Assembly: GCA_000165345.1 (NCBI GenBank) | Contig: CM000434.1 | Location: 960,001-1,024,000 of the forward strand | Direction of reading: 5' to 3' | Length of the DNA: 64,000 nt | Shown: in pieces, positions 1 through 64,000 of the stretch | Layout: every line of letters starts with the position of its first letter | Numbering within the stretch: position 1 is the first letter of the stretch | Notes under the pieces: model-generated | The model's input: the letters and a program-made list of their open reading frames with translations, nothing else | The model's database searches: none | Told to the model about the DNA's origin: nothing | Made by a program: the position numbers and the translations under genes

Positions 1-1
1 C

Positions 2-1159
2 CAGGAAGAGCTTGAGAGCAAGTTATTGGAGAGTAAACTATTAGAATTGGAAGCTGTTGATTCAGTTTTAGTATCAACAATTCAAACAACAGCAGCTTTA
101 GAGCAAAGAAAAAAGCGTGAAAATAAGAATTCTTGTATATCAGTACCAACTGGATCATTCTTAATTAGAGCTTTTTATAGTAATAATGGCGTAAATAATA
201 ATAATGGTAATCATTCAGATAGTACAAATGAAGATGAAAATAGTTCAGTAAATGGAGGACATTCTGGAAATGGAATTGAACATACAAATCACCTAATTAT
301 TTTTAATAATGAGGAGCTTGAAGAATACAAACATCTTGTATTGAGGTTTATGCATCAACAAAATGGAAATGATGATTATCATTTAATTGAAAATTATAAC
401 AATACAAATAATATAAAGAATGATGAAGTGGTTTCAGAAGCTGTTGTTAAATCACAAGAGATAATGGATTCTGTGAATACTACTGAAGGAATAAATGATC
501 ATCAATCAAAGAATTCAGTTTCTCAAACAATAACAACAGGATCAGGAAGAATTCCTTCAAGAGGAATTAAAAGAAGAGGGTCATTGAAGAATCAGACAGA
601 TATTACTATGAATGGAGGAGGAATCGAAGGTAATTCAACAACTGTTTTAGAGGGAGGTAGTACTTGTAGAAACACTACTGATGATCATTCATCTTCAATG
701 ACAATATCAGGTACAAATATTAATTCAAATTCAGGTAGTAGCTCATCATTAACAACAGCTTTGAATGGTGGAGGAGTGTTAGGACAGCATTCTTCTTCTA
801 ATAATAATAATAATCATAATAATAGCGGCAATGGAATTTCTTCATCATATGGAGGAGTTGTTAATGACGATACGGTCTCCTCAGGAGGAGCAATTGCAGT
901 ATCTGCAATGTTAGAGGGACTAATTACCTCAGTTAGAGGAAGCTCAGGAGACAAATATAGACAGCAGCAACTGATGCAAGCATATCCCCAGAATAGATTT
1001 GTATCTAAAAAGAAATGCAGAGAGACAAACGAAATCTTGGCAAAGTATGTTAATGATTTAGCCAGTGAGTATTGTCATCGCAATTTTGGGTCAAGCAACT
1101 TGGCTGATGGTTATATTAATGCTTTCAATAGTCATGTTTTGAAGAATTTTAATAAATAA
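2..1159 (+). CDS. 5'-truncated CDS (reading frame open to the window start; the annotated 'M' at 26 is a TTG). Encodes the C-terminal part of an N/S/G-rich low-complexity protein of unknown function.
   Basis: There is no in-frame stop from nt 2 to the TAA at 1157-1159. The track's first codon is TTG, not ATG. Composition is strongly N/S biased and I recognise no domain. Confidence 0.5.
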   Translation, partial: QEELESKLLESKLLELEAVDSVLVSTIQTTAALEQRKKRENKNSCISVPTGSFLIRAFYSNNGVNNNNGNHSDSTNEDENSSVNGGHSGNGIEHTNHLIIFNNEELEEYKHLVLRFMHQQNGNDDYHLIENYNNTNNIKNDEVVSEAVVKSQEIMDSVNTTEGINDHQSKNSVSQTITTGSGRIPSRGIKRRGSLKNQTDITMNGGGIEGNSTTVLEGGSTCRNTTDDHSSSMTISGTNINSNSGSSSSLTTALNGGGVLGQHSSSNNNNNHNNSGNGISSSYGGVVNDDTVSSGGAIAVSAMLEGLITSVRGSSGDKYRQQQLMQAYPQNRFVSKKKCRETNEILAKYVNDLASEYCHRNFGSSNLADGYINAFNSHVLKNFNK

Positions 1160-1522
1160 GGATTTGGAGATTTTCAATCCTCACTATATAAGTAAAGTAA
1201 ATATTATGACAATTCAAAACTTTTAGAAAAGATCCAATTTTATATGTCTAAAAGGCCTATTATTAATAAGATGATGATACCGATTATGATTAATAATTAT
1301 TATAATATCCTTTAATATCATACATATCTTATTTATAGTGAAGATATATAATTCAGGCTATGAGAAAAAAAAGTAAAGTCAAGTAGATCTGAAAATAGAA
1401 AAATTAATAAAGTTTTATGATTATAAACTTTTTCTTTTTATTTCTTTTAAAAAAATATAAATTAGAGCGAAGATCATTGCTCCAATTTTTTAAATCTTTT
1501 GCTTTCTACTTATAAATTTCTG

Positions 1523-1718
1523 ACACGTTGGGCGCCAAGCTGCATGAAAAAAACATGCTGCCGCCTAATTAGTGTTAGTTTGTATAGTTAGGCGCCAATG
1601 GTGAAATATTATATGCTTGTAATTTTAATTTAGTTGAGGGGTTTAGAGCTGGATGAGAAGAGGGATTTGGTATATTTGGGCTGGGAAGAGAGGAAGTGTG
1701 GAATTTTTGGCGGGAAAG
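1523..1718. promoter_or_regulatory. Cluster of E2F-like sites: GGCGCCAA at 1531 and 1591, GCCGCC at 1560 and TTTTGGCGGGAAAG at 1705..1718, plus ACACGT at 1523.
   Basis: The motifs are visible in the sequence. The cluster is intergenic, upstream of the ORF at 2049. Confidence 0.45.
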
Positions 1719-2048
1719 TCTATTAAAAGATATATAAATTTTAAAGGTACCGGTAATCAAAGCGATCAAAAAAAAAAATTTGTAACCAAAATATTTGGAG
1801 TAATTGGCATAGAGCAGAGTATGTTTTAGTACTTATTTGTTGAGTAGTATATGGAAATTTGTTTAATTGCAAGTATAAGATCCAGAAAAAAAAAACTGGA
1901 TGGGAAGACCCTGAAATCAAACTTAAGTCAAGTCTGAACCAAACTTGGACTAAAATATTATTTTGAAAAAAGAAATCTCTAAATAATATTAGTTGAAAGG
2001 AAAGAAATAGTTGTGAATTTTAGAGGATTTAGTATTTGAAGGTTTATA

Positions 2049-2522
2049 ATGTCAGAAAAGTACTGGAGTCGTCTACTTTTGGACGTTGCAACAAATGTTA
2101 GATCAATGCACGATGGAGTAAGCAGAATGCCATTTAATTATAGAGAAAATCAAAAGTATCCAGAATATTTGGATGATATTGGAGCTCTCTGTGCATGTAT
2201 TCGAGTCTTTCAAGATTCTCTCTCTCCTATTTCTCAGCATCTTGCATTACATCCATATGAGAAGATTTACAAAGACCCTATATCTATGCCTGACCTACTT
2301 ACAACAAGTATATCAGACCAGATGAGAGAAGAAATTAAAGCTTCAGAATCGATCGTAGAGGAACTTAAAGGTACTGATGATTTTGATCAGATGTTCTTTA
2401 AAGATATGGATAGAAGCCAAATATGCAACAGAATTAATGAATTCAATAATTCAATTATCAATATTTCTCAGACAATTTCTGACTTGGATTTACTGCAATT
2501 CAATGATAACACTAAAGCCTAA
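2049..2522 (+). CDS. Hypothetical 157-aa protein.
   Basis: ATG-initiated ORF with non-repetitive composition. A cluster of E2F-like motifs lies 330-520 nt upstream. I recognise no family signature. Confidence 0.45.
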   Translation: MSEKYWSRLLLDVATNVRSMHDGVSRMPFNYRENQKYPEYLDDIGALCACIRVFQDSLSPISQHLALHPYEKIYKDPISMPDLLTTSISDQMREEIKASESIVEELKGTDDFDQMFFKDMDRSQICNRINEFNNSIINISQTISDLDLLQFNDNTKA

Positions 2523-2814
2523 AGTCAATAAGTTCTCGTGATCACTATCAATCTACTTGAAGTTGTGAGAAACTAAGTTATTTTTAGATTTGCAAAGGTA
2601 ACAAACAATACACTAACAAGTTAATGATTAACATTTATATATAACTTCCATCTATTAATTGACTAATTATAGCTTATAATTGAAATTAATAATTATTAAT
2701 ACCTCCTTCTTTTTTCTTAAAGTTAAAAAATAATAATATTAAAAAGAAATAAGATTCACTTTTTTATCTTCTTCCAATGTTTTATTGGTTCTTCTGGAAT
2801 TCACTCATATTAAG

Positions 2815-3711: not shown

Positions 3712-3860
3712 ACCAACAAATCCAGCAATATTTCTCTTAAAATGTTATTTTCTTCCTTTAACAATTTTATATTAATTTATTTCCTCGAAATTTACTTTGA
3801 ATTAGAAATTTTGGCGCCTTTTGACTTTTTTAAACCAATTAAAAATTTTTACATAGCATG

Positions 3861-3900
3861 ACCGGTATTGCAAGAAAAAATGTGCATGCAACACGTAATA
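3861..3900. promoter_or_regulatory. Composite upstream element 'ACCGGTATTGCAAGAAAAAATGTGCATGCAACACGTAATA', 150-190 nt upstream of the DRE2 start.
   Basis: It contains the ACCGGTATTGCAAGAAA word, which recurs at 35177, 20782 and 27811. It also contains the 18-nt TGCATGCAACACGTAATA word, which is repeated exactly at 6320..6337 upstream of NDC80. Confidence 0.5.
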
Positions 3901-6068: not shown

Positions 6069-6692
6069 TTTCTTCCCTCGCTACCAACATCAATTCCTTG
6101 CTTCTCAATCTTGTGTGTTCTTACTTGTTTTTATATCAAGAGAAGACTTACAAATCCAACAATTTATATATTATTCACTTGCTTTTGCTCAATTTAATTT
6201 CCTGCCACCTTATTCAGATTTTTCTCTTCAAATCACTGTTTTCATAAATACCCCTATAATATGTGGTTGTTTTCATTCCCGCCCAAAAATGTTGTGGGGT
6301 ATTTTCATTTATGCAAAGCTGCATGCAACACGTAATATATTTGAGTATATGACCGCCAAGCATTTGTATAAGGCACATTTGTAAAAAAAAAAAAAGTTAG
6401 AACAGATAACTCAAATAATTATGAATAATAGGGTAGACACATTTTGAATAATTACTTAAAAATATCAATACAGTATTTTACCTTTCAAAACTAAACTAGG
6501 CTTAAATTAATTAATAAAATTGAAATTCAATCCATCTGCAAGAGCATTAATTTTATTATATAATATATATTTCATTTGCATGCAAAGCAAAATAACTAAA
6601 ATTGCATACAAAATCAGGCGGGAAATTTAGTGAATTAAAATGCACACAAATGATTATTGAGCTTTAATTGGCAAAAAATTGGGATTTTTTGT

Positions 6693-9600
6693 TTACCACA
6701 AGTCTACATCAATATCCAGATCAGTAAGTGCCACATTTGTATCATCAGCTTGGTTGGAAACCTCTTGTAAGAATGCTGGAGTTTGTACTTCTCCTTCATT
6801 CGCAAACCAGCTTGCCATTTCATCAAGTTTACTGGTTTTGACAGCATTCGCCTTTGGCGCCATATTTACTGTCAATTTTTGCTTTTGTAATGTAGGTCTG
6901 GATTCTGTTGTTCCTCGTTTAGGTTGGGAAACTGATTTCTTTTCTGATAGTTTAAGCTTGACTGTGCTTGCGCTCTTTTCTCTCTTTGCGAGATTTTCTT
7001 GCTTTTGTTTTAATCTTCGTTCTTCATCCAACTTTGTTTTACGTACGAGATCTACTGATGAAATGAAATTCCATAATACACGGAAATAATCTGGCCAAAC
7101 AATTCTTTGAATCGTATTTTGCGGTTCTCCCAAGTATAGTGCCATCTTTTCTAGATTTTCTTTAACACTTTTCATAGTTGCTACTAAATCTTCAATTCTA
7201 GGCTCAGTATCGGAAACAAAGTCTGCTAGAATCTTAGCAATGGGATCCTTTTCTCCCATAGGGCCGGCTCTCTCATTACTTTTCTGAGCTGATTTCATTG
7301 TATCTGTGACCTTATTTAAAGATCCATTCAGTGATTGAATTTCACCTTCAATAGCACCTAAATCGCATTTGGCTGCTTTCTCTACTAAAGCCAATGGCTC
7401 TGCCAAAGAAAGCAATTCTGGCTTATCTCTCCAAATAATCTCTGTGATATATTGAAGCAAAGTTTTAATAGGTTTAGTACTCGAACGAACTTCACATAAC
7501 TTTGATAGTGAACTCATTCTAAAACCTTTAGCTTCTCCCTTTTCTGTATTAAGATTCAAAACATTACCAACTGAAAGAATTATAGAAAATACTTTCTTAA
7601 GCTTTGAATTTGTCTTAATTTCGTTGCAAACTGTAATAATCTCTTGTAAAGGCGTCATTAATTCATTAAAGGAATTGTCAAACGAAAGAATAAACAGCTG
7701 AGCGTTCAAACGAGCGCCAAACATTGGAATACCAATCATTGCAGCTATAAATTGTTCAGGCTTATCCAACTGAGTCAAGTCACCTCCTGCATCAATATAC
7801 TCTTTTACGATTGCAAACTCTTCTGGAGTTGGGGTCATTAAAATCAAAGCTTCTGTAGCTTCTGTATCCAAAATCTTCTTATCAAGATCCAATATAGCAT
7901 CACGCAATTGTTGGAATGTATATGCACTGAACTTTGATAATGCAATACTTATATTGTATGCTCTCTTTGAGTCTGGTAAAATTTGCATGACCTTTGGCTT
8001 CTTTGTCGCCTCTGTCGCCTTCTTTGGTTTTGCTGATTCGATACCAAATACTTCCTCCAAATTTCCGAAATCCAACTTGATTGGTTCTTTAATATCCCAA
8101 ATTGTACCTTGAATATTCTCAACCTTATCCCAATGTAACTTCTTTGTCTTCGATTCTGGACCACTTGGCTTACTTCCTGTCTTTCCTCCAAATTTCCCTG
8201 CCTTTCCTTTTGGGGGTCCTTTTCCTGTTGGGGGTCCTTTCCCACCTGGTGGTCCTTTTCCCCCTGGAGGACCCTTTCCTCCTGGAGGTCCTTTCCCTTT
8301 CCCTGGTGGGCCCTTTCCTTTTGCTGGCGGCGTGCCCTTTGCCGGTGGCGCGCCCTTTGCCGGTGGCGCGCCCTTTGCTTCTGCTGGTTCTGCCTTTGGT
8401 TCTGTAGGAGCACCTTCTTTTGCTTGCGGTGGCGGAGATTTGTTAATAATGTTGTCCATTTTCCCAATACCATCCAGCAATCCAGATAATGCCTTTCCTG
8501 ACTTTACACCTGCTCCTACAATACCTGTGTATACCCCTCCATCCGAAGGTTTGTATTGAATCATTGAGCTAATAAGGGCGCCAACTCCGCTACCTTTAAG
8601 AAGTTCTATCACACCCTGTGAATCAGGAGAAGGAAGTCCCCATTTTGCTGATGCTGTAAGAGCAATTCTAGTTGAAGCGCATACAAATGGCTCAAGATCG
8701 ATCACATAAGGCAACTTTGTTACTACGTTACCCCCATCATCTAAAAATGAAATGCATGCAAGTCTTTCATTACCAGATTCTTCTACATCAGGTTTTGCTC
8801 CTTTAATCTTTGCTAAAATATCATCTGGAGGAAGTTGTTGATCGATACCTACTATCTGAGTCTGAGTTACTTTAACTTGTTTAGCCTCCTCCTTATCTTT
8901 ATTTCTTTGTCTAACTAAAGGAATCAATGCATTTGGAATCCATATTGATTCTTTGAAATAAGCCTTCATTTCTTCCTTACCTGCATAATCTACTAATGGC
9001 AAATAAAATGGTAAACCTGTACTCTCATCTTTTTCTATTTGAGTTAACAACTTCCCTTCTGGAGTTATACAAGGTTCTGGAATCTCCCATTTCTCCAAAA
9101 CTGTCTGAGCTTCTTCATTTATCATCATTGTCACTGACTGCTCTCCCATAACTGGGAATCCTCTTGTTAACTTTGGAATGTTTATTATAGGTAACTTCTT
9201 TCTTTCTGTCTTACTAAATGGAGGAAGAGAAAGCATTGTAGAAACTCCTAGATAGTCTGGACCTGTAATTCTTACTTTCAAGTGAGGTAAAATTGCTGTT
9301 GAACTCACTGTCATACTCTGAAATGACTCTCCATGTAGTGCTCTGATTCTTGAAGTGCATAAAAGTTGTTGAGTTTGGTTATTTGAAAATGGGGTACTTC
9401 TATTTAACCCTCTCAAATTCTTTGGATCAAATAAAAAAGTCTCCAATTGTCGATACCTTAATTGATCAATACTTGGACAAATTGGACTTGCTAATAATGG
9501 TGATTCCTCATACATTATTCTTGTTAATTTACTTGATTTTCCTAAGGTATCGGTAATTATTTCTTTTAAAGATCTCTCTGCTCTTGATTCTAGTGATTCT

Positions 9601-11609
9601 CTTGCATCAATACACTTGTTCTGAAGCTCATGAGCTATATAAGAGTCTGTACAACTGCTTACATTCTCTGTTAAGTATACTTGGGTATCTGCATCTAATA
9701 AAGTTATCAATTCTAATACATATCTTGTATCAGGATGATCAAATCCTAAGTTCTCTCTTCTATATTTATAAACCTCATTATAAAGCTCTAAAGCATATCT
9801 AAAGTTTCCAGCCTGGTGAAAAATACATCCCAAAGCTAGTATATTGTCTTGTACTAATGGAAACTCTCTGTTATTGTAGATCCTCATTAACATATCTAAA
9901 GCTACCATTATATGTTGTACTCCTTGTCTACAATCTCCAAGTAATCGATAAACTAATCCCAAATTTGAATAGCAATCAGCTACACGAGGATGAGGTGGAT
10001 TCTTATTATGATCTCCCAGAACCTGTTTTCTGATTTCCAGACAATTATGTAACATTTCCTTACATTTTTCAAAATTCTTTATTCTGAAATAGTAACTTGC
10101 TGCTGTAGAGTATGCATCACTCATAACTAAGTCTCCTGAACCATAAACTTCATTTACTAATGAAAGATATTTTTCAAGGTAAAATGCTGATGATGTATGA
10201 TCTCTATACATACTACATAGATCAGAGACTGTTAGTACCAGACTACATAATACTGAAGAATCACATGAAACTGATGGTCCTACAGCTGTAACATTTTGAG
10301 TTGAACCTCCAGATCCTGATAAATTTGAGATATTGCTAATATGAGAAGAATCATTTTTTGCATTTTTATTCTCAGAATTGCGATCTGCAACAGCTAAGAT
10401 GGTATTTTCCACAAGAAATCGAAGCTCTTTAAGATATTGTTCTCCTTTACGTAATTCTCCTGTTAAACCACAACATTTAGCAATAATGATTAATTCTACA
10501 ACCATTATACCTTCTAATGGGTGTCCAAGGTACTTGGATAGAAAAGCTCGAGATATTTCATAACAATGTAAAGCATTCAGCATGGCATCTGAGTATTGAG
10601 CTTTCAAAAACTTCTCTAAAGCTGAGCTTCTTAGTCTTTGAATGATTCTTTGAATTTCATGTATTTCTCCATCTCCACGTGATTCTTCAAGACGTTGTAA
10701 AAGAAGAAGGGAATCTGTCATAATTTCAAACTTCTCATTAACAATTTGAGGTCTGGCTTTTGTTGTTTGTCCAAATAAGAGATTATTCTTTTCAGAAGTT
10801 GTTAGTGTAAAGTGTCTACTTGCAAACTCTTCTTTAAATGTTTGACTTAAAGCTGCTAGTGAGTGTTCAGCAGCTTCTGTTAATGCTGGATCCAATACAC
10901 TTACGTGTAGATTAAACATATCATCTTCTCTTTGAGAAATTCGAGCATTTCTTCCTTCTTTTTTTTTCAAGTTACTTTTTCCAGGAGCTTTATCTTGGAA
11001 AAGTAGACGTTTAATAGGGCCAACATCAAAAGGAAGAGTTGATTCAACAAAGGTACTTCTATTACTTAATTCTGAGTAACGTCCATCTTTAGAGAGATTG
11101 TTCTTCAATAGTTTAGATTCACCATTAATAGTGGTTGCAGTAGAAGATGCTCCTGTTGAGCTGGAAGGTAGACTACTAGCTTTGGAATCTTTACTTATAC
11201 TTTTCAGAACAGTTTTTGCTGAGGCTGGCTTTGATGGTACGCTTACTGGAGGAGCGTGACCATTGGATACTGGTGTATCATTTAAAGGTTCTGATGAATT
11301 TTTAGGTATTGGGGCCTTTGGGGCTGGTTTTAATGCAGTAGGAGGTCCTTTTGAGACCTTTGGACCAGGAGGAGAGGGTGATGGAGAAGCTGACTTTGGT
11401 GGAGGTGGTGTTGATGGTTTTGGTGGAGGTGGGGATGATGGTTTTGGTGGAGGAGATTCTGAAAGGTTTGGAGAAGGAGTTGAAGATAATTTTGAAGGTG
11501 GTGGAATTTTCGTTGCTGGTTTCCCTCCAAGTGGTTTAGCAGGGGGAGGCGGTTTTTTTCCACCAGGAGGAGAAAGAGGAGCCTTGCCTGGCACACCCAA
11601 TTTTTTCAT
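6693..11609 (-). CDS. Formin (FH1-FH2) with a proline-rich N-terminus and TPR-like repeats before the FH1 region.
   Basis: FH1 region of (GKGPPGG)n and (AKGAPP)n repeats, followed by an FH2 signature ('KKLHWDKV...IWD', 'GIPMFGARLNAQLF', 'LNLNTEKGEAKGFRMSSL'). N-terminal TPR-like units include 'YSNLGLVYRLLGD'. The N-terminus has a 'PPPPKPSTPPPPK' stretch. Starts at a true ATG at 11607-11609. Confidence 0.8.
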   Translation of the reverse strand: MKKLGVPGKAPLSPPGGKKPPPPAKPLGGKPATKIPPPSKLSSTPSPNLSESPPPKPSSPPPPKPSTPPPPKSASPSPSPPGPKVSKGPPTALKPAPKAPIPKNSSEPLNDTPVSNGHAPPVSVPSKPASAKTVLKSISKDSKASSLPSSSTGASSTATTINGESKLLKNNLSKDGRYSELSNRSTFVESTLPFDVGPIKRLLFQDKAPGKSNLKKKEGRNARISQREDDMFNLHVSVLDPALTEAAEHSLAALSQTFKEEFASRHFTLTTSEKNNLLFGQTTKARPQIVNEKFEIMTDSLLLLQRLEESRGDGEIHEIQRIIQRLRSSALEKFLKAQYSDAMLNALHCYEISRAFLSKYLGHPLEGIMVVELIIIAKCCGLTGELRKGEQYLKELRFLVENTILAVADRNSENKNAKNDSSHISNISNLSGSGGSTQNVTAVGPSVSCDSSVLCSLVLTVSDLCSMYRDHTSSAFYLEKYLSLVNEVYGSGDLVMSDAYSTAASYYFRIKNFEKCKEMLHNCLEIRKQVLGDHNKNPPHPRVADCYSNLGLVYRLLGDCRQGVQHIMVALDMLMRIYNNREFPLVQDNILALGCIFHQAGNFRYALELYNEVYKYRRENLGFDHPDTRYVLELITLLDADTQVYLTENVSSCTDSYIAHELQNKCIDARESLESRAERSLKEIITDTLGKSSKLTRIMYEESPLLASPICPSIDQLRYRQLETFLFDPKNLRGLNRSTPFSNNQTQQLLCTSRIRALHGESFQSMTVSSTAILPHLKVRITGPDYLGVSTMLSLPPFSKTERKKLPIINIPKLTRGFPVMGEQSVTMMINEEAQTVLEKWEIPEPCITPEGKLLTQIEKDESTGLPFYLPLVDYAGKEEMKAYFKESIWIPNALIPLVRQRNKDKEEAKQVKVTQTQIVGIDQQLPPDDILAKIKGAKPDVEESGNERLACISFLDDGGNVVTKLPYVIDLEPFVCASTRIALTASAKWGLPSPDSQGVIELLKGSGVGALISSMIQYKPSDGGVYTGIVGAGVKSGKALSGLLDGIGKMDNIINKSPPPQAKEGAPTEPKAEPAEAKGAPPAKGAPPAKGTPPAKGKGPPGKGKGPPGGKGPPGGKGPPGGKGPPTGKGPPKGKAGKFGGKTGSKPSGPESKTKKLHWDKVENIQGTIWDIKEPIKLDFGNLEEVFGIESAKPKKATEATKKPKVMQILPDSKRAYNISIALSKFSAYTFQQLRDAILDLDKKILDTEATEALILMTPTPEEFAIVKEYIDAGGDLTQLDKPEQFIAAMIGIPMFGARLNAQLFILSFDNSFNELMTPLQEIITVCNEIKTNSKLKKVFSIILSVGNVLNLNTEKGEAKGFRMSSLSKLCEVRSSTKPIKTLLQYITEIIWRDKPELLSLAEPLALVEKAAKCDLGAIEGEIQSLNGSLNKVTDTMKSAQKSNERAGPMGEKDPIAKILADFVSDTEPRIEDLVATMKSVKENLEKMALYLGEPQNTIQRIVWPDYFRVLWNFISSVDLVRKTKLDEERRLKQKQENLAKREKSASTVKLKLSEKKSVSQPKRGTTESRPTLQKQKLTVNMAPKANAVKTSKLDEMASWFANEGEVQTPAFLQEVSNQADDTNVALTDLDIDVDLW
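8190..8400 (-). repeat. Coding tandem repeats (15-21 nt units, GGCGCGCCCTTTGCC-like) that encode the formin FH1 poly-proline tract.
   Basis: Several direct repeats of 'ggtggcgcgccctttgcc' and 'ggtcctttcc' units are visible in the sequence. On the minus strand they translate to GKGPPGG/AKGAPP. Confidence 0.7.
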
Positions 11610-12286: not shown

Positions 12287-13312
12287 TTATCTAACAAGTT
12301 CCTTTAAAAAATGTTCGTAGTTAAATCCTCCATCATTAGATGGGAAATCCCTAATTAAAAAAAATAGTAAAAATGTTAAAAGCAGGTTGGGGGAGGCTGT
12401 TTGCATGCATTTACTTGCATGGCAAATTATCACTATACCGGCGTACATGCAAGATGTACAAATAGGCGGCATATGGCACGTATTGAAATATATGAACTTA
12501 CTTTAAAAGTATTTCAATTTCTTTATTGGTTAAAACTTCTCCTGTATTAGTTAATAGAGAAGTCAGCTGCTGGCTAGTGATTGATCCAGAGTTCTGTAAT
12601 ATTGGAAGAAATTGATGAATTAGAAATAATATTATAAATAGAAAATGGAGAAGTGGCACAAAGTATATTGAACTTACATTTGAGTCATACGATCTGAAAA
12701 ATTGAACTAGATTTTCAAAAGTGTCTTCTGGATGTACAATAGAATCACAAAATTTTACAAAAGCTTGTAAATCACATGTTTGACCAACACTTGCGACAAA
12801 TCTCTGGACTTCGCTTTCAGATGGCGCTAATCCCTAAAATTAGGAATAAAAGTGATGTTTAATTAATAATAAAAATGGAGTGGAAAACTGACCATTCTTC
12901 TAACAATTTCTCCAATTTTATTGGTTTGAATGGTTGGACCTCCTCCCTATAGTTTAAAAGAGAATAATGGTATTAAAAGATGATATTAAAGATTGCTTGG
13001 GATTAGGAGTTGGGGTTAATATGGCGGAGTAATGCATTTATTTCTCCATTTTACATATCCCAAGGATGACTTGGTAAAAGCTTAACTTACAGCAGCATCT
13101 CTGAATGAAAATTCAATTCTCTCTTTGGACTATAAATATGAAAAAAGAATTAATTTATTTGCAAAAAAAAAAAAAATTAAGTAATGATAATTAATAGTTA
13201 GTCATTTCTATGAGATTCAAGTTTCTTCCCTAGTTTCTCAAAATTCACTAAAGGAAGAAAAAATGGATGGAGCGTAACAATCAAAAGAACTTACAATCTT
13301 GAAAGGTGGCAT
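12287..13312 (-). CDS. Six-exon EF-hand (calmodulin / myosin-light-chain-like) gene of 140 aa. Exons in plus coordinates, 5' to 3' of the gene: 13312..13295, 13129..13091, 12946..12893, 12833..12678, 12593..12502, 12350..12287 (stop TAA at 12289..12287).
   Basis: Conceptual splicing gives 'MPPFKI|SKERIEFSFRDAA|GGGPTIQTNKIGEIVRRM|GLAPSESEVQRFVASVGQTCDLQAFVKFCDSIVHPEDTFENLVQFFRSYDSN|NSGSITSQQLTSLLTNTGEVLTNKEIEILL-K|DFPSNDGGFNYEHFLKELVR*'. This aligns along its length with calmodulin EF-hand pairs (for example FSFRD..GGGPTI..IGEIVRRMG versus [25 protein letters not shown]). Every exon is bounded by GTAAGT-type (or GTCAGT) donors and YAG acceptors, the phases are compatible, and stops flank each exon in frame. 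The track's ORF at 12287..12472 is the last exon plus readthrough of the intron. Confidence 0.7.
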
Positions 13313-13479: not shown

Positions 13480-13560
13480 AATATGCCGCCTTTTATTTCA
13501 CGACCAAATGGCAAAGCAGATAAAGGCGGGACTTTAGGGCGGGCAAATGTGCATGTTGAA
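13480..13560. promoter_or_regulatory. Bidirectional promoter core between the two head-to-head EF-hand genes, containing E2F-like GGCGGG motifs.
   Basis: 'atatgccgcc', 'aaaggcgggac' and 'agggcgggcaaatgtgcatg' lie between divergent ATGs at 13312 (minus) and 13878 (plus). Confidence 0.5.
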
Positions 13561-14966: not shown

Positions 14967-15264
14967 CTTGGAATATTTTAGCATTTTTTTCTTCATAAAT
15001 CTAAAACCTACTTATCCCTTTTTCAAAATCAATATAATCCAATTTTCCATTTTCCCCTTTTCTTACTTATAATTAAATTCTGCATGCATGCAATTAATAT
15101 TTTTTTTTAAAATTTGTGCAAATATTAACATATACCGGAGATTAGGCGCCAACTTATTTAATTTTTCTAATTAAATTTCTTGAATATTCAAAGAATATTG
15201 GGGTTTGAAAGTAAAAAATTAAGTTATCTAAGAACAAATAGTAATTATTTGTTCTAGATATAAA

Positions 15265-18279: not shown

Positions 18280-18875
18280 TTATTTAGGTATAGAATAAGA
18301 GGGAGTTGACCAACTTTCTTCAACACATTCTAGTACTTTACTATTATACTTATTTCTTTCCTTAACATACATTTCAGAAGCTATAGTGTTTGCAGGAGAA
18401 TTAGGATTTGGATCACTCAATAAGGATTGTATTGAAGTTAATACAGAAGCAATATCAATCAAAGCACTCCATTGATTCTGAAGTATATCTAAACATATCC
18501 TCCCGTCTGGATATATATTGGGATGAAACATTTTACTTAAGAATCTTACATCTGGAGGTTTTGTTGGATATTCTTCAGAGAATTGCATAATTAAGTTAAA
18601 GGTGCCTATTGGGGTTGAAGTGTATAAGTTAAATTTCTTGATAATATTAGACTTACCACTTTCCCAGAAAGTATCTTTTGGACCATTAATGATTGCCTGA
18701 CAATACATCATATTTTGTGAAAATGGCATTACACGGATACCCTGGTATACCTCTTTTCTAAGCTTATTAATATCATTAACAATTCTCCTTCTCTATCAGA
18801 AAGAATAGTCACACACATAAGTTATATGATTCAGGAATTTCTTCAATATGTTAAACTTACTGCACTAGTTGACAT
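18280..18875 (-). CDS. RAD6: Ubiquitin-conjugating enzyme E2 of the Rad6/UBE2A type, two exons: 18875..18861 (MSTSA) and 18792..18280; intron 18860..18793 (68 nt).
   Basis: The spliced product begins 'MSTSARRRIVNDINKLRKEVYQGIRV...' (human UBE2A begins MSTPARRRLMRDFKRLQED). Later it reads 'FSEEYPTKPPDVRFLSKMFHPNIYPDGRICLDILQNQWSALIDIASVLTSIQSLLSDPNPNSPAN', which closely matches Rad6 around the catalytic Cys (HPN...C). The intron has a GTAAGT donor and a TGATAG acceptor. The ORF in the track (18280..18729) lacks the N-terminal roughly 26 aa of the UBC fold. Confidence 0.8.
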
Positions 18876-19132: not shown

Positions 19133-19159
19133 GTGCCCGCCCAAAATGGCCCGCCTAAA
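19133..19159. promoter_or_regulatory. Tandem E2F-like CCCGCC motifs (tgcccgcccaaaatggcccgcctaaag) in the divergent Rad6/RPL10 promoter.
   Basis: The motif is visible in the sequence and lies between the minus ATG at 18875 and the plus ATG at 19594. Confidence 0.5.
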
Positions 19160-35109: not shown

Positions 35110-35255
35110 AAATAATTCCTATTTTATATAACCATTTTTGCACATTTTGGCGCCAAAATGTCACAGTGGGGAAGTCTGCGGTATTGCAAGAAATTACTAA
35201 AATAAAGAATTATACAAAAAAAGAAGTTTGTATTTGAAGTGATTATATTGACTTT

Positions 35256-41828: not shown

Positions 41829-42284
41829 TCAAATCTATTCGTCTTAGATTTCTTTTATTATAATTCTAAACAAACAACAAACTAATATTTACATCTTCAA
41901 CTCTACATGCACTATTTAAATTTTCCCGCCTAAAATTGCTCGTATTTTTTAGAAGTTAGAAAAATTAACGCTTTAGTTTAATAATTAGGATCTACCATGT
42001 ATATCAATGAATTTCTTCTCTTCCATTCTGTGAAAACTCTTTTTTCCTCTTCATACGAGAATTGAAGTAATCCTTTGATAATTTATAAGGGAGGGTGAAA
42101 AGTTAGTTTTGGCGGTTAACATGGCCTAAGACACCCCTCTGGGCCTGTGAGTATAAGAAAGACCAGGAGGCCATTAATAATAAGAAAAGTGTAAAAAAGA
42201 AGATCAGTCCTTTATGGATATTAAGGATTGATAGAGTAGTGCTTGATCATCCTAAAGGAGGCTTGCGTTAAAAAAAAGGACCAA

Positions 42285-45200
42285 ATGGTTCGTAATGGTG
42301 ATCAAAGTCTTATAAACATATCATCTACAGACAAGTCTGATAAATGGGACTTGAAGCATAAAAATGAAGAAATTCCAACCAGAAAAGTGGTGGAGGAATC
42401 AAGTCTAGAATACTACGAGAGATCATCGCGCTCGGCCTCGCACTTTGGTAAGGTTTATAATGGACTATATCCAGTAGGTCCAAGATTACCAAGTTTCTCT
42501 TCATCCAATAAAAGAAGTAGGCTACAGAGTACATATAATGAGGATGAGTTCAGTTCCAGTTCAGCAAATAGTTCTGTTATAAATTCCGATGATAAAATGT
42601 ATATTGATTTTCCAATTCGAAATTTCTGGAAGATTGCAAAGACTCCTATAGACATGGAATCTCCCCAAATTGGGTATTGTCGAGGCTTTTATTATAGATT
42701 GTTAGTTCATCCCAGAGGAGGGAGTTGTAATGATTCTGAAAGCAGCTACTTGAGCGTGTTTTTGGAAGCACTTTACCATGAATCATATCCAGACGATTGG
42801 ATTTTTCCAAATGTTCGATTTCAACTTTCAGTTGTAAACTTTTTAGACCCCAAAGCAAATATCACGTCTTGGGCCCATTGGACATTTTCTCATGATGCAA
42901 TGAGTAGAGGATGGCATAAGATGGTTTCACATGTGAGACTCACTAGAGCTGCAGGTTTTGTTGATGACGAAGGAACCGTGTTAATTAGAGGTAGAGCTGA
43001 GCCTCCATTTCCGAGAATTTGGTCAAGATCTCCTAAATGTAGGCCATGGAGTATATGGGGTACCTTACCCTATAGAAATGCATCAGCATTGGCTCAGTAT
43101 AAGCCTTGTATTACCGGAACCCGCCAAGATCAGAACCAAGGCTGTTCTGATAAGCATGTTATTACAACAAATCTTTGTGCTTTTCATGAATTAGCAGAGA
43201 ATTCTAATAGAGGTCTTCTTTCTTGTAGAGCAGAATCACTATCTTCAGAAAGTTGTGGCATTTCTCAACATCAGTTAGAAGGCTCCTTATTAGTAGGGAG
43301 TACTCCTTTGTCAATTATGGATAGACTTTTATGGTCCAGTAGTAATTTGTTTGTTCCAACTTTAAGATCTCAGCTTAATGTGGACTTTGTTCCTGCATTT
43401 GTCCATTTGCTTTACCATATCAAAGAGTTTAGGAGGGCAATTTTCTCTTGGAACCCACGAATCCCTAAGAAATGTTCAACAAATCAAAATCCCAATTCTT
43501 CAGAAAGGTCAAAGAAGCATGATCCCAATCATTCTCCCGCCTCATTTATAGACCCCCAACAGCCACGTACATCCATTATTGAGGCTCTTCAGAAAACCTT
43601 TGCATATATGACTCTCTGGCCAATTGCCTATTCTGTCAAAAGATCTATCCGACATAGCTGGCAAGAAAGAATAGCCACAGATCCTTCTCTTGTGGACGAT
43701 TGGTGTTTCTCTAAATGTTGTAAATGTGGTGGTGAATTTGACTCTTATCCTAACAGTCCTGAAATGACTGACACTTCATCACTCCATACATCAAATAGCA
43801 GAAATGGCCGGCATTGTGCTTCCGATAAAAGTATTCCAACCCAGAGTTCTATTTTCAAAGAAAAGGAATGTCTCAGATGCAAATTACCTCCTGTTCCAGA
43901 TTGTTCTTGGATTATGAAAGCTTTATATATGAACGATTTACAAAGGATTGATGTTGCTGACCCTCTCATGCGCTTCCATTGCTTCATTTTTGGCGCCATT
44001 TATTTGGAGTCTGCACATGCAATTCTCCAGATTGCCGCGCATCACAGAAAGTCAATTCCACAGAATTTCAGGGGTTCAGAAAAGTTTGCCAATTTAGAGT
44101 CATCTGAAGGGAAGGATGAGTTTGAGAGATCCGAATTAACTGATGGTGAGTATAAAGAGTTTAGAGAGTCGGATGAAAGGAGTTTAGGATCACAAAGAAC
44201 TAGAGATCAGGAACAAAGTCGAGGCCAAGGCCGAGGTCAAGGTCAAAGCCAAAACCAAGATCAAGATCAAAACCAGTACTATGATCATGGACAAACACAA
44301 GGACGAGATATGAATATCTCAATCTCTTCTATTTTTGACTTAGAAGAGGATCTGAGAGTCCCAACAGAGTTTGATAATACTTGCAGAGTATTGTTTTCCA
44401 GTGTAGCTGAAGATGGAGGTGATTGCTTCTCTGACTACTCCACGTGCTGCCTTAGAGCTAAGCATATTCATTCAATCCCCAAAGCTATTGAGCATTATGC
44501 TCACAGATTTAAAAGATTCCCTGAAACACTTTTTATTTACTTCACTCCTCCAAAAAATGCCAAGAAGGGAGAGTTGTTTGACGTTCCTTTTAGGCTTGAA
44601 GCATCATTTTTATTGGAGAATTCCAATGTAAATGTAAATACAGGTATCGGAGTGGTTGATCAAGATTTTAAGGGTATAAAATCTGATAATCGTGGACAAA
44701 ACACTAATCAACAAGAGGATATTCAACCTCTTGTCACTGAACAATTCCAAGATGATGAAGTTATTGATGAAAGTACTCCAGACCTGAAAGGTAAAGTTAG
44801 AGGTAATAAAGAAGCAACAGGCTCTGAATCTGGTCAAAATACAACGAGCGTAGTTTTGGACAATAATGATTCTGCATTATGTGTTGAATCCAATGATGAA
44901 TACTCTTTAGAATACGTCTCAGAGGATGGATTTGATGAGAATCAGGACACCTCTATTCAATCTGATAGTCAGGACGATACAACAGGACATAAAAGTGATG
45001 TCAAATCTCCAAATTCTGAGAACTTCTTTGGATCTTCCAGCCAATATATGGAAAAATGGTACTCATTATATGGAGTGATCATTAAAGAAGGAGACGCTTC
45101 TGGAAGTAATTCTACAAGAAGTGTTCATCAACTTCTAATTAGACCTGAAGAAGATGGTCCATGGTTTAGAATTTGTGATGGTTTAGTTGAAAGACTTATA

Positions 45201-53702: not shown

Positions 53703-54220
53703 CAAGACAAAACAAAAAAATGTAACTTATAGCTTTTTCTTTTAAATTAAATATATATTTAAATTTGTCTCCCTTTTCTTTTTCTTTTTCTTCTTCTTCT
53801 TCTTCCTTATTTTTTTGGTCCTTTCAATATTTTGCATCCTCCATTTTTACATGCATGCAGAACTTTTGGCGCCACCCCACACTACCGGCATTGGATGCAT
53901 TTATTAGTAGTGGGCGAGGCACTCTAAGAGGTTTTTTTCTTTTTTTTTTTTATTATTTAAATTAAAATTCTAAAGTATTGGTAATAATAATCATAAAAAA
54001 AGTTTATATAATTATAACCACATTGATTAATATTTATTTCTAAATATTAATACTAATATTGTTTTCTATAAAATATCACTTCCTTGAATGTAATATTAAT
54101 ATCCTAATCTTCTTTCCCCTCTATATTAAAAATATTTCGAAAGAAGGGAATGAGGAAAAGTTGTTTAAGACATTAATAACTATTTGGAATAATTGTGTAT
54201 AAATAAGGGGGAAAAAAAGG

Positions 54221-56395
54221 ATGATTCCGAATGGATCAAAACTTGAGCTTGGAACTTTAGTATTAGGTTCTGAAACAGTAAGAAAAGGATGGAATGCATT
54301 TTCAACTTTAAATAATGCAATAGATGGAGTTAGAAAAGTGGCAAATGATGTAGTAGGATATAATAATTCAACAACAATAGGAAATGAGAATTATAAAGGA
54401 GAATTGGAAAATAATAAAATAGTAAGTATAATAGAGAAAATAGAAGTAGGACAGGTATATGGAAGATTAAAAAATGATTTAAAATTAATACAAATATTTG
54501 AAAGAGAAACAAAATCAATGGGAACTTTAGAAATTATTTCAATTAATAATAATTTAGACTTTTCATATTTAAATATAAGATGGAGACGAAAAATGGGTGA
54601 AAAATTAATTGATATACAAGGTAAAGATTCAAGCCTAAAATATAACTTAACAGCTGATGATGTAGGAACAATTATTATTATAGAAATATATCCAAAAGGA
54701 GAAGCAAATGATCCTTTAAATATTACATATTGTGAATTAGGACCTATAGAAATAGATGATACAACAAAGATATCTTTATCAAAATCTTTAAAAACAGGTC
54801 TTATTAGATTCCCTGTAGAAATTATAAAAGATGAATTTGAAAGCTTAATAAATCCAGAAAATTCTTCAAAAGAATTAAAAAATGATGAAGATTCAATAAT
54901 GACAAAAGATATTTTGGTAGTAACAAATGATGATGTTAAAGTAATTAAAAATGGAATGACAAGTTCAAATTCAAACTTTGAAAAGAAAATTGTATGGTCA
55001 GCAAAATACTTTGGTGGTAATATACATATTCAATTAAATCATCAATCATCATCTTGTCAAGAATTCACTCTTTGTTCTGGATACGATATTCATAAACAAA
55101 AGATATCAATTAAAACAACAAGTAGAAATGCTAGAGATATTGCAGCTTTAACAATTAGATGTTTAAATATTAGACACACAATATCATTAGAAGCTATAAT
55201 TGGAGGTGGAGTTTCCTGGATCCCAAAAAACTCAACAGTAAATGATTCAGATAATATGGAAATTGAAGAAAATAGAAAATTAAATATTTTTGCTTATATA
55301 GGACGTCTAGAAGATGAAATTGCAAATTTAGAGAATAACAAGGAAAAACTGAACGAAGATAAAAAACTTCTTCAAACTGAAAAAGCTATTTTAGAAAATG
55401 AATTAGCTGAGACAATTTCAGCTTATCAAGATATAATTTCTCAATATCAACAAGAAAAAGATACTAAAACCAATACTAACAAACAAACCAAAGAATTTAA
55501 CATAGAATTTGGGCTTGAAAAGAACACAGGAATTAAACAATCCAACAATAGTCCAAACAAAAAGTCGATTCAATCAAATTCAAATAATTCTCATAAATCT
55601 ACCTTACTACATGGTTACAGTGGTACCTATCCTATAAATAATTCAAAACAAGATGGATCTAGCAATTCAGAAAATAATAATAACTCACAGAAAAATGAAT
55701 CCATTCAACAAAATTCCACTGAAATTAATAAAATAATTGAAGAAAATGCTTCTCTTAAAGAGTCCATTTCTCAACTTAATAAAAAATTTGAAAATGAAAT
55801 TGGCGCCAAAGAGTCAATGGAGCGCATGCATGCAGAAATTGAAGAATTGCGCGGGAGATTGGAAAGGTCGGAAAAAGAAAAGGAAGACTATAAAAGATTA
55901 AATGAAAAATTAGATGGCGAAATCTTTGTTAAAAATCAAGAATTAGAGAGTATTAAGTTAGGACAATGTTTAAATTCGACTAGAAATATAGAAAAGATAC
56001 AGCAATTGGAAGATCGCATATTGGATCTTCAGAGTCAGAATTCTGAAAAACAACAAGCTATTCAAACTTTATCAACAGAAAAATCAAAGCTTCTAAAAGA
56101 CTTTTCATCATTAAAATTAGACTTTGATAAGCTTAAGGAGCAACATAATCAACTAAATAAGAGATACATAAGCTTAAATCTTGAGAATTCAAGAATTCAT
56201 GATCAAGAAAAATCATCAAAATTTGACAATGAACTCATGAATTCTGACTCTCAAAACAAAAATGACCAAGCTGTTGATATTACAAAACTAAAAAGTGAGC
56301 TTGAAGATTATAAGAAAACTAATTGTGAGCTTAACCAGACTATAACTCAACTTAAAACAAGAATACGAAGGTTAGCAATGATCAATTCTACTTAG
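54221..56395 (+). CDS. Hypothetical 724-aa protein: a globular N-terminal roughly 330 aa followed by a long coiled coil.
   Basis: ATG at 54221. The C-terminal half is heptad-rich (E/K/L/Q/N) with leucine-zipper-like spacing. Upstream motifs: CATGCATGCA at 53850..53859 and TTTTGGCGCCAC at 53865..53876. Confidence 0.5.
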   Translation: MIPNGSKLELGTLVLGSETVRKGWNAFSTLNNAIDGVRKVANDVVGYNNSTTIGNENYKGELENNKIVSIIEKIEVGQVYGRLKNDLKLIQIFERETKSMGTLEIISINNNLDFSYLNIRWRRKMGEKLIDIQGKDSSLKYNLTADDVGTIIIIEIYPKGEANDPLNITYCELGPIEIDDTTKISLSKSLKTGLIRFPVEIIKDEFESLINPENSSKELKNDEDSIMTKDILVVTNDDVKVIKNGMTSSNSNFEKKIVWSAKYFGGNIHIQLNHQSSSCQEFTLCSGYDIHKQKISIKTTSRNARDIAALTIRCLNIRHTISLEAIIGGGVSWIPKNSTVNDSDNMEIEENRKLNIFAYIGRLEDEIANLENNKEKLNEDKKLLQTEKAILENELAETISAYQDIISQYQQEKDTKTNTNKQTKEFNIEFGLEKNTGIKQSNNSPNKKSIQSNSNNSHKSTLLHGYSGTYPINNSKQDGSSNSENNNNSQKNESIQQNSTEINKIIEENASLKESISQLNKKFENEIGAKESMERMHAEIEELRGRLERSEKEKEDYKRLNEKLDGEIFVKNQELESIKLGQCLNSTRNIEKIQQLEDRILDLQSQNSEKQQAIQTLSTEKSKLLKDFSSLKLDFDKLKEQHNQLNKRYISLNLENSRIHDQEKSSKFDNELMNSDSQNKNDQAVDITKLKSELEDYKKTNCELNQTITQLKTRIRRLAMINST

Positions 56396-56627
56396 ATTTT
56401 AAACTTCTATCTTTTTCTTTAAGTCCAATTATCTCCAAATATTTATAAATCTATTTCTTATTTATTTATTATAGTTATTTAATTATTAAATAGTCCATTT
56501 ATTTATTTGTCCACCTTTTTTTACCTTTATATTTTGTGGCCTCACTTTTTGGCGCCAAGTGTGAATATTCATCTTTAAAGCTTTATTATGAACAGAAATC
56601 TATAGTTATGCAGACAAAGTGAAGAAT

Positions 56628-62423: not shown

Positions 62424-62743
62424 TCAAAAAGATCCACTTGATAATTTTAAGTACGAAATTTCCTGTTTTAAAATAAATTATTACTATTATTATTATTATT
62501 ATTACTTTCTACTAAAAAAAGAATCTAAAAGACTAAGGATGTGTATTAAAGCTAGAAATGCATGCATGCATGCAATTATAACGGTATCGATTAAACCAGC
62601 TTAAGAATTTTCTTTTCTTGAGGGTGAAAAAAAAAAATTCACTCCTAGATTATCTCATTTTCTGTTGTATTCCTTTCTTAGAGTGTTACAAAAGTCCTGA
62701 ATATACTAAACTTAGTAAACATGTAATTAAAAAAATCAATAAT

Positions 62744-63334
62744 TTATCGATTTGCTTTAGCAACACGTTCTACCTCATCCTTTCTCTTAATAGCATAGCT
62801 ATTTGGATTTTCCTTGGCACAGTTCATAATTTCATCAGCCAAGCATTCAGCAATGGTCTTGATGTTTCTGAAAGCCTGAGTACGAGCACCAGTACAAATA
62901 AGATAAATAGCTTGGTTGACACGTCTCAATGGTGAAACGTCAACAGCTTGACGTCTGACAGCACCAGCAGAACCAATACTAGTAGAATCTTCACGAGGAC
63001 CTCCATTCTTAACAGCATCTACAAAGACTTGAATTGGATTTTGATCAGTGACGAGATGAATAATATCAAAAGCAGCACGAACTATACGTATAGCCTGGTT
63101 CTTTTTACCATTGTTTCTACCATGCATCATTAAAGAACATACAAGTCTTTCAACAATTGGGCAAAGAGCCTTTCTAAAACGCTTAACTTGGTATCTACCT
63201 GCAGTAACTGGAGCATATACGCAAGCCTTGTCCTTGACGGCAATGTAATCTACAAGAGATAAGTCAGAAACATTGACATCGTCATAAGACCACTTGCCGA
63301 ATAATTTAACATCAGAAGTAGAGAAAGTTGCCAT
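62744..63334 (-). CDS. RPS5: 40S ribosomal protein S5 (uS7).
   Basis: '[25 protein letters not shown]...[27 protein letters not shown]...[40 protein letters not shown]...[13 protein letters not shown]...[19 protein letters not shown]' is nearly collinear with human RPS5. Confidence 0.9.
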
Positions 63335-63649
63335 TTTGACTTCGTTTCTTAAACCAATTTTTTTAAATTAATTAATCCTTAAAAGTCTTTCCTTCTTAGT
63401 AAACTTGTACTAGAAATTCTCAACAAAGCTAATTCCTCTCAATTTAAAAAGCCTTTCTTGATTTATTTGTCAAATATTTTCTATTAGTTTTAATAGGTAG
63501 ACACGAAAATGTGTTTATTGAATAAATTTATTAATATTATTTTTTTAAAAAAATTTATTTTAAATTAAAAATTATTTATTTTATTTATTAATATTGTTTT
63601 ACTATGACTCGTCTAAATAAGCCGTCTCAAATATACATTCAGCGTGGAA

Positions 63650-63674
63650 TGCCCGCCTAAATTTTGGGCGGGCA
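63650..63674. promoter_or_regulatory. Inverted pair of E2F-like motifs (gcccgcctaaattttgggcgggc) about 320 nt upstream of RPS5.
   Basis: CCCGCC and GGCGGG arms flank 'taaattttg'. This resembles 'gcccgcccaaaatggcccgcc' upstream of RPL10. Confidence 0.5.
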
Positions 63675-63741
63675 GTTGGAATCATTAATATTAAATGTGG
63701 GAGAAAAAATTAAATGATTTTAATTAATTTGTTTAGAATAA

Positions 63742-64000
63742 TTAAAAATGATTATTAGTATTACTACTACTACTGCTATTACTACAATTTTTAGTATTTT
63801 GGTGATTACGCCTAGAATTTGGATAGATTCTTGTTGTAGTTCTTTCATTATCCTCTAAATGGTGTGAAGAGTTCCATTTAATACAAATACACACTCGTCT
63901 CGGATTATTTTGAGAATAGTCTTTGTGGCTAGTATCTTCATATTGTCTAATATTGTGGTCATACAATACAATCTGACTAATTGCGCAATTTTCACACGGG
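63742..64000 (-). CDS. 3'-terminal part of a minus-strand CDS whose 5' end lies beyond the window; K/N/S-rich tail.
   Basis: The frame is open from the window end down to the stop at 63742..63744. The track's 'M' at 63966 is a TTG codon. Composition is low-complexity, so this may not be coding. Confidence 0.3.
   Translation of the reverse strand, partial: PCENCAISQIVLYDHNIRQYEDTSHKDYSQNNPRRVCICIKWNSSHHLEDNERTTTRIYPNSRRNHQNTKNCSNSSSSSNTNNHF

Follow-up and report, generated by a model that had tools for sequence, protein, structure and literature searches.

A conserved E2F-like box and an AP2-type palindrome as probable core promoter words across 64 kb of Cryptosporidium parvum chromosome 6

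The stretch of DNA analysed here, 64,000 nucleotides long and hereafter called the window, belongs to chromosome 6 of the apicomplexan Cryptosporidium parvum. Almost all of its genes are preceded by a GC-rich, E2F-like hexamer (GGCGCC, GGCGGG or CCCGCC), and a subset of the upstream spacers additionally carries the palindrome TGCATGCA or its core GCATGC. These words are very probably core cis-regulatory elements of C. parvum promoters, the former being most likely read by E2F/DP and the latter by ApiAP2 proteins. That both are overrepresented in the non-coding DNA of this chromosome is already known, and this part of the result is a rediscovery: a 2025 review credits both TGCATGCA and [A/T][C/G]GCGC[G/C][A/T] to Bankier et al. 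2003 (PMC12246861), and the E2F/DP and ApiAP2 interpretation, genome-wide surveys and links to open chromatin and to the promoters of long non-coding RNAs (lncRNAs) have been published since (Oberstaller 2013 and 2014; lncRNA and ATAC-seq studies of 2021-2025). What the present analysis adds is the positional conservation of individual sites in six or seven Cryptosporidium species, together with the contrast between 5' and 3' spacers at this locus.

The 24 genes of the window, with calls taken from the C. parvum record CP029785.1 and from sister assemblies, span 80% of it (51,079 nt at 32.6% GC), leaving 23 spacers with a total of 12,921 nt at 25.3% GC. In these spacers GGCGCC occurs 12 times against an expectation of 0.13, GGCGGG/CCCGCC 15 times against 0.29 and TGCATGCA 11 times against 0.15, the expectations being derived from 1000 dinucleotide-preserving shuffles of the spacers, none of which attained any of the observed counts. 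Shuffling the window as a whole gives a comparable picture (GGCGCC, 17 observed vs 0.36 expected; GGCGGG/CCCGCC, 20 vs 1.01; TGCATGCA, 15 vs 0.65). Further, when spacer words are ranked against an order-2 Markov expectation, the top four 6-mers are GGCGCC, GCATGC, TGCATG and GGCGGG, and the top three 8-mers are TGCATGCA, GGCGCCAA and TGGCGCCA. An earlier note on this DNA, made from the letters of the sequence, had proposed counting the words in coding sequence as a check on base composition. Per kb, they are about nine to eleven times denser in spacers than in genes (8.6-fold for GGCGCC, 10.8-fold for GGCGGG/CCCGCC and 9.7-fold for TGCATGCA) despite the lower GC content of the spacers, and hence this comparison does not refute a regulatory role. 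For ten control palindromes, including GCGCGC, GCCGGC, CACGTG, CAGCTG and TGTACA, the ratio of spacer to gene density is at most 1.6.

The placement of the words points in the same direction. An E2F-like hexamer is found in the in-window 5' spacers of 21 of the 22 genes and in none of the five convergent 3'-3' spacers, in which the sole match to any of the words is a (TGCA)4 run at 62559-62574. The assertion of the earlier note that nearly every 5' spacer carries one of these words hence stands for the E2F-like forms but fails for GCATGC, which is present in 6 of the 22. When positions and orientations are taken relative to the start codons, as that note had also suggested, the E2F-like site closest to each ATG is 39-444 nt away from it (median 253), and relative to the gene the asymmetric words occur in both orientations without preference (10 vs 9). 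In the four divergent spacers there is just one site or one tight pair each, which is consistent with shared bidirectional promoters. The E2F-like sites have [C/G]GCGC[G/C] or CCCGCC as their core, T-rich sequence on its 5' side and A-rich sequence on its 3' side, as is typical of E2F/DP sites: the flank consensus is TTGGCGCCAA, T occupying position -2 in 79% and position -1 in 75% of the symmetrised GGCGCC sites (background 38%), and the canonical E2F heptamer TTSSCGC is found at 17 of the 27 spacer sites. Four tight pairs with start-to-start spacings of 13-16 nt were observed (13525/13538, 19136/19150, 40278/40294 and 63652/63667), and the spacing of 13-14 nt is kept in the orthologous spacers of other species. 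Additionally, 9 of the 27 E2F-like boxes have a TGCATG no more than 30 nt away, as against 3.5 expected, a count attained in 8 of 5000 permutations.

Every site catalogued in the earlier note exists, within 0-10 nt of where it had been placed. GGCGCCAA lies at 1531, 1591, 15145, 21104, 27789 (given there as 27790), 35149 and 56551; TTGGCGCC lies at 3811, 38977 (given as 38978), 40292 (40283) and 53866 (53867), and a further supposed TTGGCGCC at 38954 is in fact ATGGCGCC at 38955. TTTGGCGGGAAA has an exact match at 1706, and the other sites likened to it are GGCGGG cores at 6617, 13525, 13538 (given as 13540) and 21684. TTTCCCGCC is present at 29689, 40275 (given as 40266) and 41922, and TGCATGCA at 3883, 6320, 12402, 15081, 33167, 53852 and 62559; the supposed copies at 20713 and 33333 are just GCATGC, with the octamer incomplete. 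Two of the sites taken to be upstream elements lie outside 5' spacers, namely 12402, which is inside the span of the EF-hand gene, and 62559, which is in a 3'-3' spacer. Inspection of the window also recovered spacer sites that had been overlooked (6278, 6577, 19136/19150, 20752, 20837, 31519, 33155 and 63652/63667), as well as copies inside genes (6856, 8577, 8753, 15688, 17297, 41444, 43992 and 55802/55827). The resulting features are as follows.

1531-1717: cluster upstream of g2 (hyp157), with GGCGCCAA at 1531 and 1591 and TTTGGCGGGAAA at 1706-1717; TACCGGTA follows at 1748.
3811-3896: promoter of g3 (CIAPIN1, minus strand), with TTGGCGCC at 3811-3818 (-107 from the ATG) and TGCATGCAACACGT at 3883-3896.
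6278-6625: promoter of g4 (Ndc80, minus strand), with CCCGCC at 6278, TGCATGCAACACGT at 6320-6333, TGCATGCA at 6577 and GGCGGGAAA at 6617-6625.
13525-13557: divergent EF-hand/MTIP promoter module, with GGCGGG at 13525 and 13538 (13 nt apart), then TGCATGTT at 13550-13557.
15081-15152: promoter of g8 (hyp1000), with TGCATGCATGCA at 15081-15092 and TTAGGCGCCAA, whose GGCGCC is at 15145 (-120 from the ATG).
19136-19155: divergent UBC/RPL10 promoter, a CCCGCC pair with 14 nt spacing and TTGCATG ahead of the pair.
20713-21111: distal cluster of the RPL10/PP2B spacer, with GCATGC at 20713 and 20752, TACCGGTA at 20791, TGCATGCA at 20837 and GGCGCCAA at 21104.
21682-21689, plus strand: proximal TTGGCGGG of g11 (PP2B), -379 from the ATG.
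27765-27819: divergent kinesin/RabGAP module, with CCCACA at 27765, TGCATG at 27773, GGCGCCAAC at 27789-27797 and ACCGGTAT at 27812-27819.
29689-29697: TTTCCCGCC of g14 (hyp489), -135 from the ATG.
33155-33338: promoter of g15 (Mo25), with GGCGGG at 33155, TGCATGCA at 33167 and GCATGC at 33333; a distal GGCGGG lies at 31519.
35147-35156: TTGGCGCCAA of g16 (COG7), -107 from the ATG in a spacer of 177 nt.
38955-38986: divergent CS-domain/GPN3 promoter, with GGCGCC at 38955 followed, at a spacing of 24 nt, by TTGGCGCCAA at 38977-38986.
40275-40299: TTTCCCGCCAAA and TTGGCGCC of g19 (hyp456), cores 16 nt apart at -180 and -164 from the ATG.
41922-41930: TTTCCCGCC of g20 (hyp3805), -360 from the ATG.
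53852-53873: TGCATGCA and TTGGCGCC of g21 (hyp724), separated by 14 nt between their starts and 15 between their cores, at about -360 from the ATG.
55800-55834: pair inside g21 (54221-56395), TTGGCGCCAA at 55800 and GCATGCATGCA at 55824-55834, roughly 800 nt ahead of the ATG of g22.
56549-56558: TTGGCGCCAA of g22 (Trs85), -77 from the ATG.
62559-62574: (TGCA)4 run in the convergent Trs85/RPS5 3'-3' spacer, containing three overlapping TGCATGCA matches.
63652-63672: inverted pair upstream of g23 (RPS5, minus strand), CCCGCC at 63652 and GGCGGG at 63667.

The syntenic RPL10 neighbourhood was compared in C. meleagridis (L015), C. ubiquitum (L014), C. canis (L019), C. felis (L018), C. bovis (L017) and C. 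muris (L016), the GPN3 neighbourhood in C. ubiquitum (L013), and the RPS5 neighbourhood in three gastric-type assemblies (L020 from C. muris, L021 from C. serpentis, and L022). Spacers of the five non-gastric species contain the word of their C. parvum counterpart, and its distance from the ATG is nearly unchanged. This holds even in C. canis and C. felis, where the spacers approach 45% GC (at the orthologous loci coding GC is 52-54% and spacer GC 44-46%, as against 35% and 25% in C. parvum). In MAFFT alignments the motif columns are conserved at 0.74 and the other spacer columns at 0.53, i.e., conservation exceeds the spacer background, as is expected of a functional cis-element. These alignments indicate purifying selection on the spacer words.

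Individual spacers illustrate this pattern. Between kinesin and RabGAP, the only invariant blocks of at least 6 nt across six species are TACCCACA, TGCATG, GGCGCCAAC and CCGGTAT, with the box reading ttgGGCGCCaac in C. parvum and four others and ttcGGCGCCaac in C. meleagridis. Likewise, the only such blocks between EF-hand and MTIP are GGCGGG, invariant in six species at 13538, and TGCATGTT, which is found in all seven; the pairing of GGCGGG recurs as well. The arrangement of GCATGC with GGCGCC between MTIP and hyp1000 is found in six species, the doubled, overlapping GCATGC (TGCATGCATGCA) being confined to C. parvum, C. meleagridis, C. ubiquitum and C. canis. The paired CCCGCC of UBC/RPL10 is kept in C. 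meleagridis and C. ubiquitum, with similar CCCGCC sites in C. canis, and the proximal tttGGCGGGcat of PP2B is identical in C. meleagridis, C. ubiquitum and C. felis. In the RabGAP/hyp489 spacer the form varies, CCCGCC in C. parvum and C. meleagridis being replaced in C. ubiquitum, C. canis and C. felis by GGCGCC about equally far from the ATG; this substitution suggests that the GGCGCC and CCCGCC/GGCGGG forms may be equivalent and interchangeable. In C. ubiquitum the GGCGGG and GCATGC pair of Mo25 retains its distance from the ATG, both sites of CS-domain/GPN3 are kept at the same offsets, and sites are retained in 5 of 6 further spacers with some positional turnover.

The attribution to C. 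parvum is itself secure. The earlier note had inferred a Cryptosporidium-like organism and had proposed comparing RPL10, RPS5 and GPN3 with apicomplexan proteomes. All three are exact matches to C. parvum Iowa II proteins (RPS5 being cgd6_4320), and PP2B, a calcineurin-type phosphatase, the EF-hand protein and a 157-aa hypothetical protein complete a set of six that are identical at every residue. Moreover, the window is an exact substring of chromosome 6 in the assembly GCA_031892065.1 (record CP029785.1, 957,154-1,021,153), with 0 mismatches over stretches of 21.5, 21.4 and 19.8 kb; BX526834.1 differs from the window by 7 mismatches in 21.5 kb. The assignment is thereby narrowed to a species and a chromosome. 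The compact, A+T-rich and mostly intronless organisation described earlier is also seen (31.1% GC over the whole window), since introns are implied for just two genes, EF-hand (g6, 12287-13312) and UBC (g9, 18280-18875), whose spans exceed the lengths of their products.

With the organism established, the window sites can be placed among known systems. They are instances of the published C. parvum E2F-like motif ([A/T][C/G]GCGC[G/C][A/T], GGCGGG; Bankier 2003, Mullapudi 2007, Oberstaller 2013), from which they show no essential difference, the organism, chromosome, words, overrepresentation in non-coding DNA and near-ubiquity all being alike. This motif and the AP2_1 motif TGCATGCA are both overrepresented upstream of C. 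parvum genes (PMC3734150, PMC4117751, PMC12246861), and the former lies upstream of 161 of 200 co-expression clusters (PMC4117751). The palindrome, in turn, is identical to the octamer of the ApiAP2 AP2_1 site (TGCATGCA/TGCAT, a site bound by PF14_0633, cgd2_3490 and cgd1_3520), similarly enriched upstream, and protein-binding microarrays show that the AP2 domains of the latter two proteins bind it (PMC4117751). In the window, however, it is limited to six promoters, often takes the half-form TGCATG beside an E2F-like box, and in one instance is a (TGCA)4 run between convergent genes. Cryptosporidium is the sole studied apicomplexan to have retained E2F and DP genes (PMC3734150, PMC12246861), the reported E2Fs being cgd1_1570 and cgd6_1430 (PMC3734150) and the two DP partners cpbgf_7003650 and cpbgf_8001850 (bioRxiv 10.1101/2025.01.17.633476), all encoded elsewhere than in the window. 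In the assay for transposase-accessible chromatin (ATAC-seq) on sporozoites, the E2F motif ranks first, and bidirectional promoters make up more than half of the peaks (bioRxiv 10.1101/2025.01.17.633476).

The boxes also resemble the canonical E2F/DP sites of animals and plants (TTTSGCGCS; in Arabidopsis TTTCCCGCC/TTTGGCGGG; PMC3734150), with which they share the GC core flanked by a run of T and a run of A. Further points of likeness are independence of orientation, a position close to the promoter and frequent pairing. The mammalian DHFR promoter, for example, contains an overlapping inverted E2F site, TTTCGCGCCAAA. The deployment is different: in animals and plants E2F sites mark a cell-cycle regulon, whereas in Cryptosporidium the box lies upstream of nearly all genes. 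The pRb partner and most of the proteins that interact with fly, worm and mammalian E2F are reported to be absent from Cryptosporidium (PMC3734150).

The interpretation of the words as E2F/DP and AP2 sites, already offered in the earlier note, is thus supported by the published C. parvum motifs, the microarrays and the flank consensus, and we infer that E2F/DP physically binds the boxes and activates transcription. In the arrangement that we envisage, the E2F-like box, with the consensus TTGGCGCCAA or a half-variant of the type TTTCCCGCC/GGCGGGAAA, would act alone or in a tight pair, at 40-450 bp upstream of the start codon and in either orientation, such that one site or pair could serve both genes of a divergent couple. 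E2F/DP winged-helix heterodimers would most likely bind it and thereby mark a promoter of open, nucleosome-free chromatin. In a subset of promoters the adjacent TGCATG(CA) would most likely be read by an ApiAP2 protein (cgd2_3490, cgd1_3520 or other TGCAT binders), which could add stage specificity. A conserved E2F-like box at nearly every promoter in 64 kb, confined among spacers to the 5' class, lends locus-level support to this and fits the view that Cryptosporidium relies on an ancestral E2F/DP system and not on ApiAP2s alone.

Two other explanations need to be weighed against this one. The words could be an artefact of composition or low complexity, made frequent by base composition, microsatellites or a dispersed repeat family. 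Where short (TGCA)n runs occur (15081/15085 and 62559/62563/62567), one run indeed yields more than one overlapping TGCATGCA match, so that the 11 spacer matches reduce to 8 distinct places. However, shuffles that preserve dinucleotides expect just 0.1-0.3 occurrences of words that are observed 11-15 times, the words are GC-rich in spacers of 25% GC from which other GC palindromes are absent, and sites are kept at matching offsets in species of very different GC content. A dispersed repeat family was rejected, as flanks beyond about 2 nt differ from site to site. An artefact of this kind is accordingly vanishingly improbable.

Rather less remote, though still unlikely, is the possibility that the boxes are genuine, conserved promoter elements which are not read by E2F/DP, being instead either the target of another factor (an ApiAP2, a zinc finger or some other protein) or a general core-promoter or nucleosome-excluding element of highly AT-rich spacers, as opposed to a regulated E2F switch. 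The near-universality of the box (21 of 22 genes) and its presence upstream of clusters peaking at any time point (PMC3734150) would be more in keeping with a general mark of promoters than with a specific regulator. Additionally, at homologous positions the gastric species keep only the GCGC core, in the form GCGCTA, which is a poorer fit to the strict, symmetric [C/G]GCGC[G/C] core of E2F. The literature itself treats E2F/DP binding of the boxes as an inference, and Oberstaller 2013 calls for chromatin immunoprecipitation sequencing (ChIP-seq) (PMC3734150). Against a different reader stand the TTGGCGCCAA flanks and the TTTCCCGCC variant, close to classic E2F/DP sites, together with the frequency of TTSSCGC; the retention of E2F and DP genes uniquely by this genus (PMC3734150, PMC12246861); and MEME/Tomtom analysis of the ATAC-seq peaks, which ranks E2F1 first and E2F6 third, with an unannotated poly-T motif second (bioRxiv 10.1101/2025.01.17.633476).

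Apart from the gastric boxes and the standing of E2F/DP binding in the literature, several observations weigh against E2F/DP and ApiAP2 as the readers of core promoter words. The 677-nt 5' spacer of g5 (ATG at 11609) contains no E2F-like hexamer and has TGCAT cores only. The words are also in excess within genes (GGCGCCAA, for example, with 6 genic occurrences observed and 0.08 expected), and this excess is unexplained by mRNA promoters alone. Further, no AP2 motifs were seen in the open chromatin of sporozoites in the 2025 ATAC-seq study (bioRxiv 10.1101/2025.01.17.633476), which would be compatible with TGCATGCA acting only at other stages.

The earlier note had further concluded that a very small regulatory vocabulary drives the whole region. 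This is apt insofar as an E2F-like word is near-universal, but TGCATGCA is found at a minority of promoters, other words are enriched and conserved, and 11 motif families have been counted in C. parvum (PMC4117751). The further words of the spacers are CCCACA, ACCGGTAT/TACCGGTA and ACACGT. In the kinesin/RabGAP spacer CCCACA (27765-27770) and (T)ACCGGTA(T) (27811-27819) are invariant in six species; the spacers contain 3 copies of TACCGGTA (0.03 expected) and 12 of ACACGT (1.2 expected), the latter including those at 3891 and 6328. The composite TGCATGCAACACGT is present twice, at 3883 and 6320.

The gastric species present a different picture, based on a comparison of two loci comprising about 40 kb of C. 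muris in all. The C. muris spacers of L016 and L020, 6.4 kb in total, lack GGCGCC and GCATGC and contain CCCGCC once, while GCGCTA/TAGCGC is found in them 11 times, as against once in 34.7 kb of coding sequence. The (A/G)GCGCT(A/T) boxes of C. muris lie at L016:16143-16212, at L016:6140-6200 and in the L020 spacers, and C. serpentis (L021) and the third gastric-type assembly (L022) share the pattern. In the kinesin/RabGAP spacer CCCACA, TGCATG and the GCGC core are invariant in seven species, C. muris included, with the box reading tAGCGCTa in C. muris and gGGCGCCa elsewhere. Similarly, between EF-hand and MTIP, where TGCATGTT is invariant, the GGCGGG pair is replaced in C. muris by GCGGGAA ... 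AGCGCTA. Judged by their aligned positions, the gastric GCGCTA boxes are homologous to, and not just analogous with, the GGCGCC/GGCGGG boxes.

We tentatively raise the possibility, which is more doubtful than the promoter role itself, that the genus has undergone a change of its dominant promoter word, from GGCGCC/GGCGGG with TGCATGCA, in the intestinal clade and C. bovis, to (A/G)GCGCT(A/T) in the gastric species, and that this change is genome-wide and unreported. No description of it was found in the searchable literature, in which the papers combining 'Cryptosporidium muris' and 'E2F' do not concern C. muris promoter words. If the change is real, the DNA specificity of E2F/DP, or of whichever other protein reads the box, would have co-evolved with hundreds of promoters. 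A genome-wide shift to GCGCTA would also amount to a natural experiment on which protein reads the box.

Among the copies inside genes, those at 15688, 17298, 18100 and 27132 drift across species at synonymous positions (the GGCGCC at 15688, for instance, reads AGCGCC in C. meleagridis) and hence represent ordinary codon content. The best-flanked genic copies are those at 6854-6861 (6856), 8577/8753, 43990-43997 (43992) and 55800-55834. The pair at 55800-55834 and similar copies may be candidate internal promoters or promoters of antisense lncRNAs. Upstream of C. parvum lncRNAs, which are mostly antisense, the two highest-ranking motifs are E2F/DP1 and ApiAP2_1 (PMC7840661). By analogy, lncRNA promoters could plausibly explain the genic excess of the words, the pair at 55800-55834 and the (TGCA)4 run between Trs85 and RPS5. 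The orthologous 213-nt Trs85/RPS5 spacer of the gastric species contains no GCATGC as a counterpart of that run.

Two spacers of the window are unusually long, namely 20263-22062 (1.8 kb, RPL10/PP2B) and 31297-33548 (2.25 kb), and their distal word clusters are separated from the next ATG by 950-2030 nt. When the window was scanned in full, with Rfam at gathering thresholds and for tRNAs, no match resulted, so that the long spacers are not accounted for by known RNA genes. The RPL10/PP2B spacer measures about 1.5-1.8 kb in six species and 371 nt in C. muris. A protein gene missed in it was considered and rejected: tblastn matches are spread over several frames and both strands with no frame-specific signal, making such a gene unlikely. 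Its distal cluster is 950-1350 nt away from the PP2B ATG on the upstream side; C. meleagridis, C. canis and C. felis have comparable clusters and C. ubiquitum only the central GCATGC. The spacer may contain an unannotated non-coding transcript.

Lastly, no Pfam match is recorded in C. parvum for the 1638-aa product of g5 (6693-11609, minus strand), but FH2 (formin) and TPR matches are present in its syntenic equivalents from C. muris and C. bovis.

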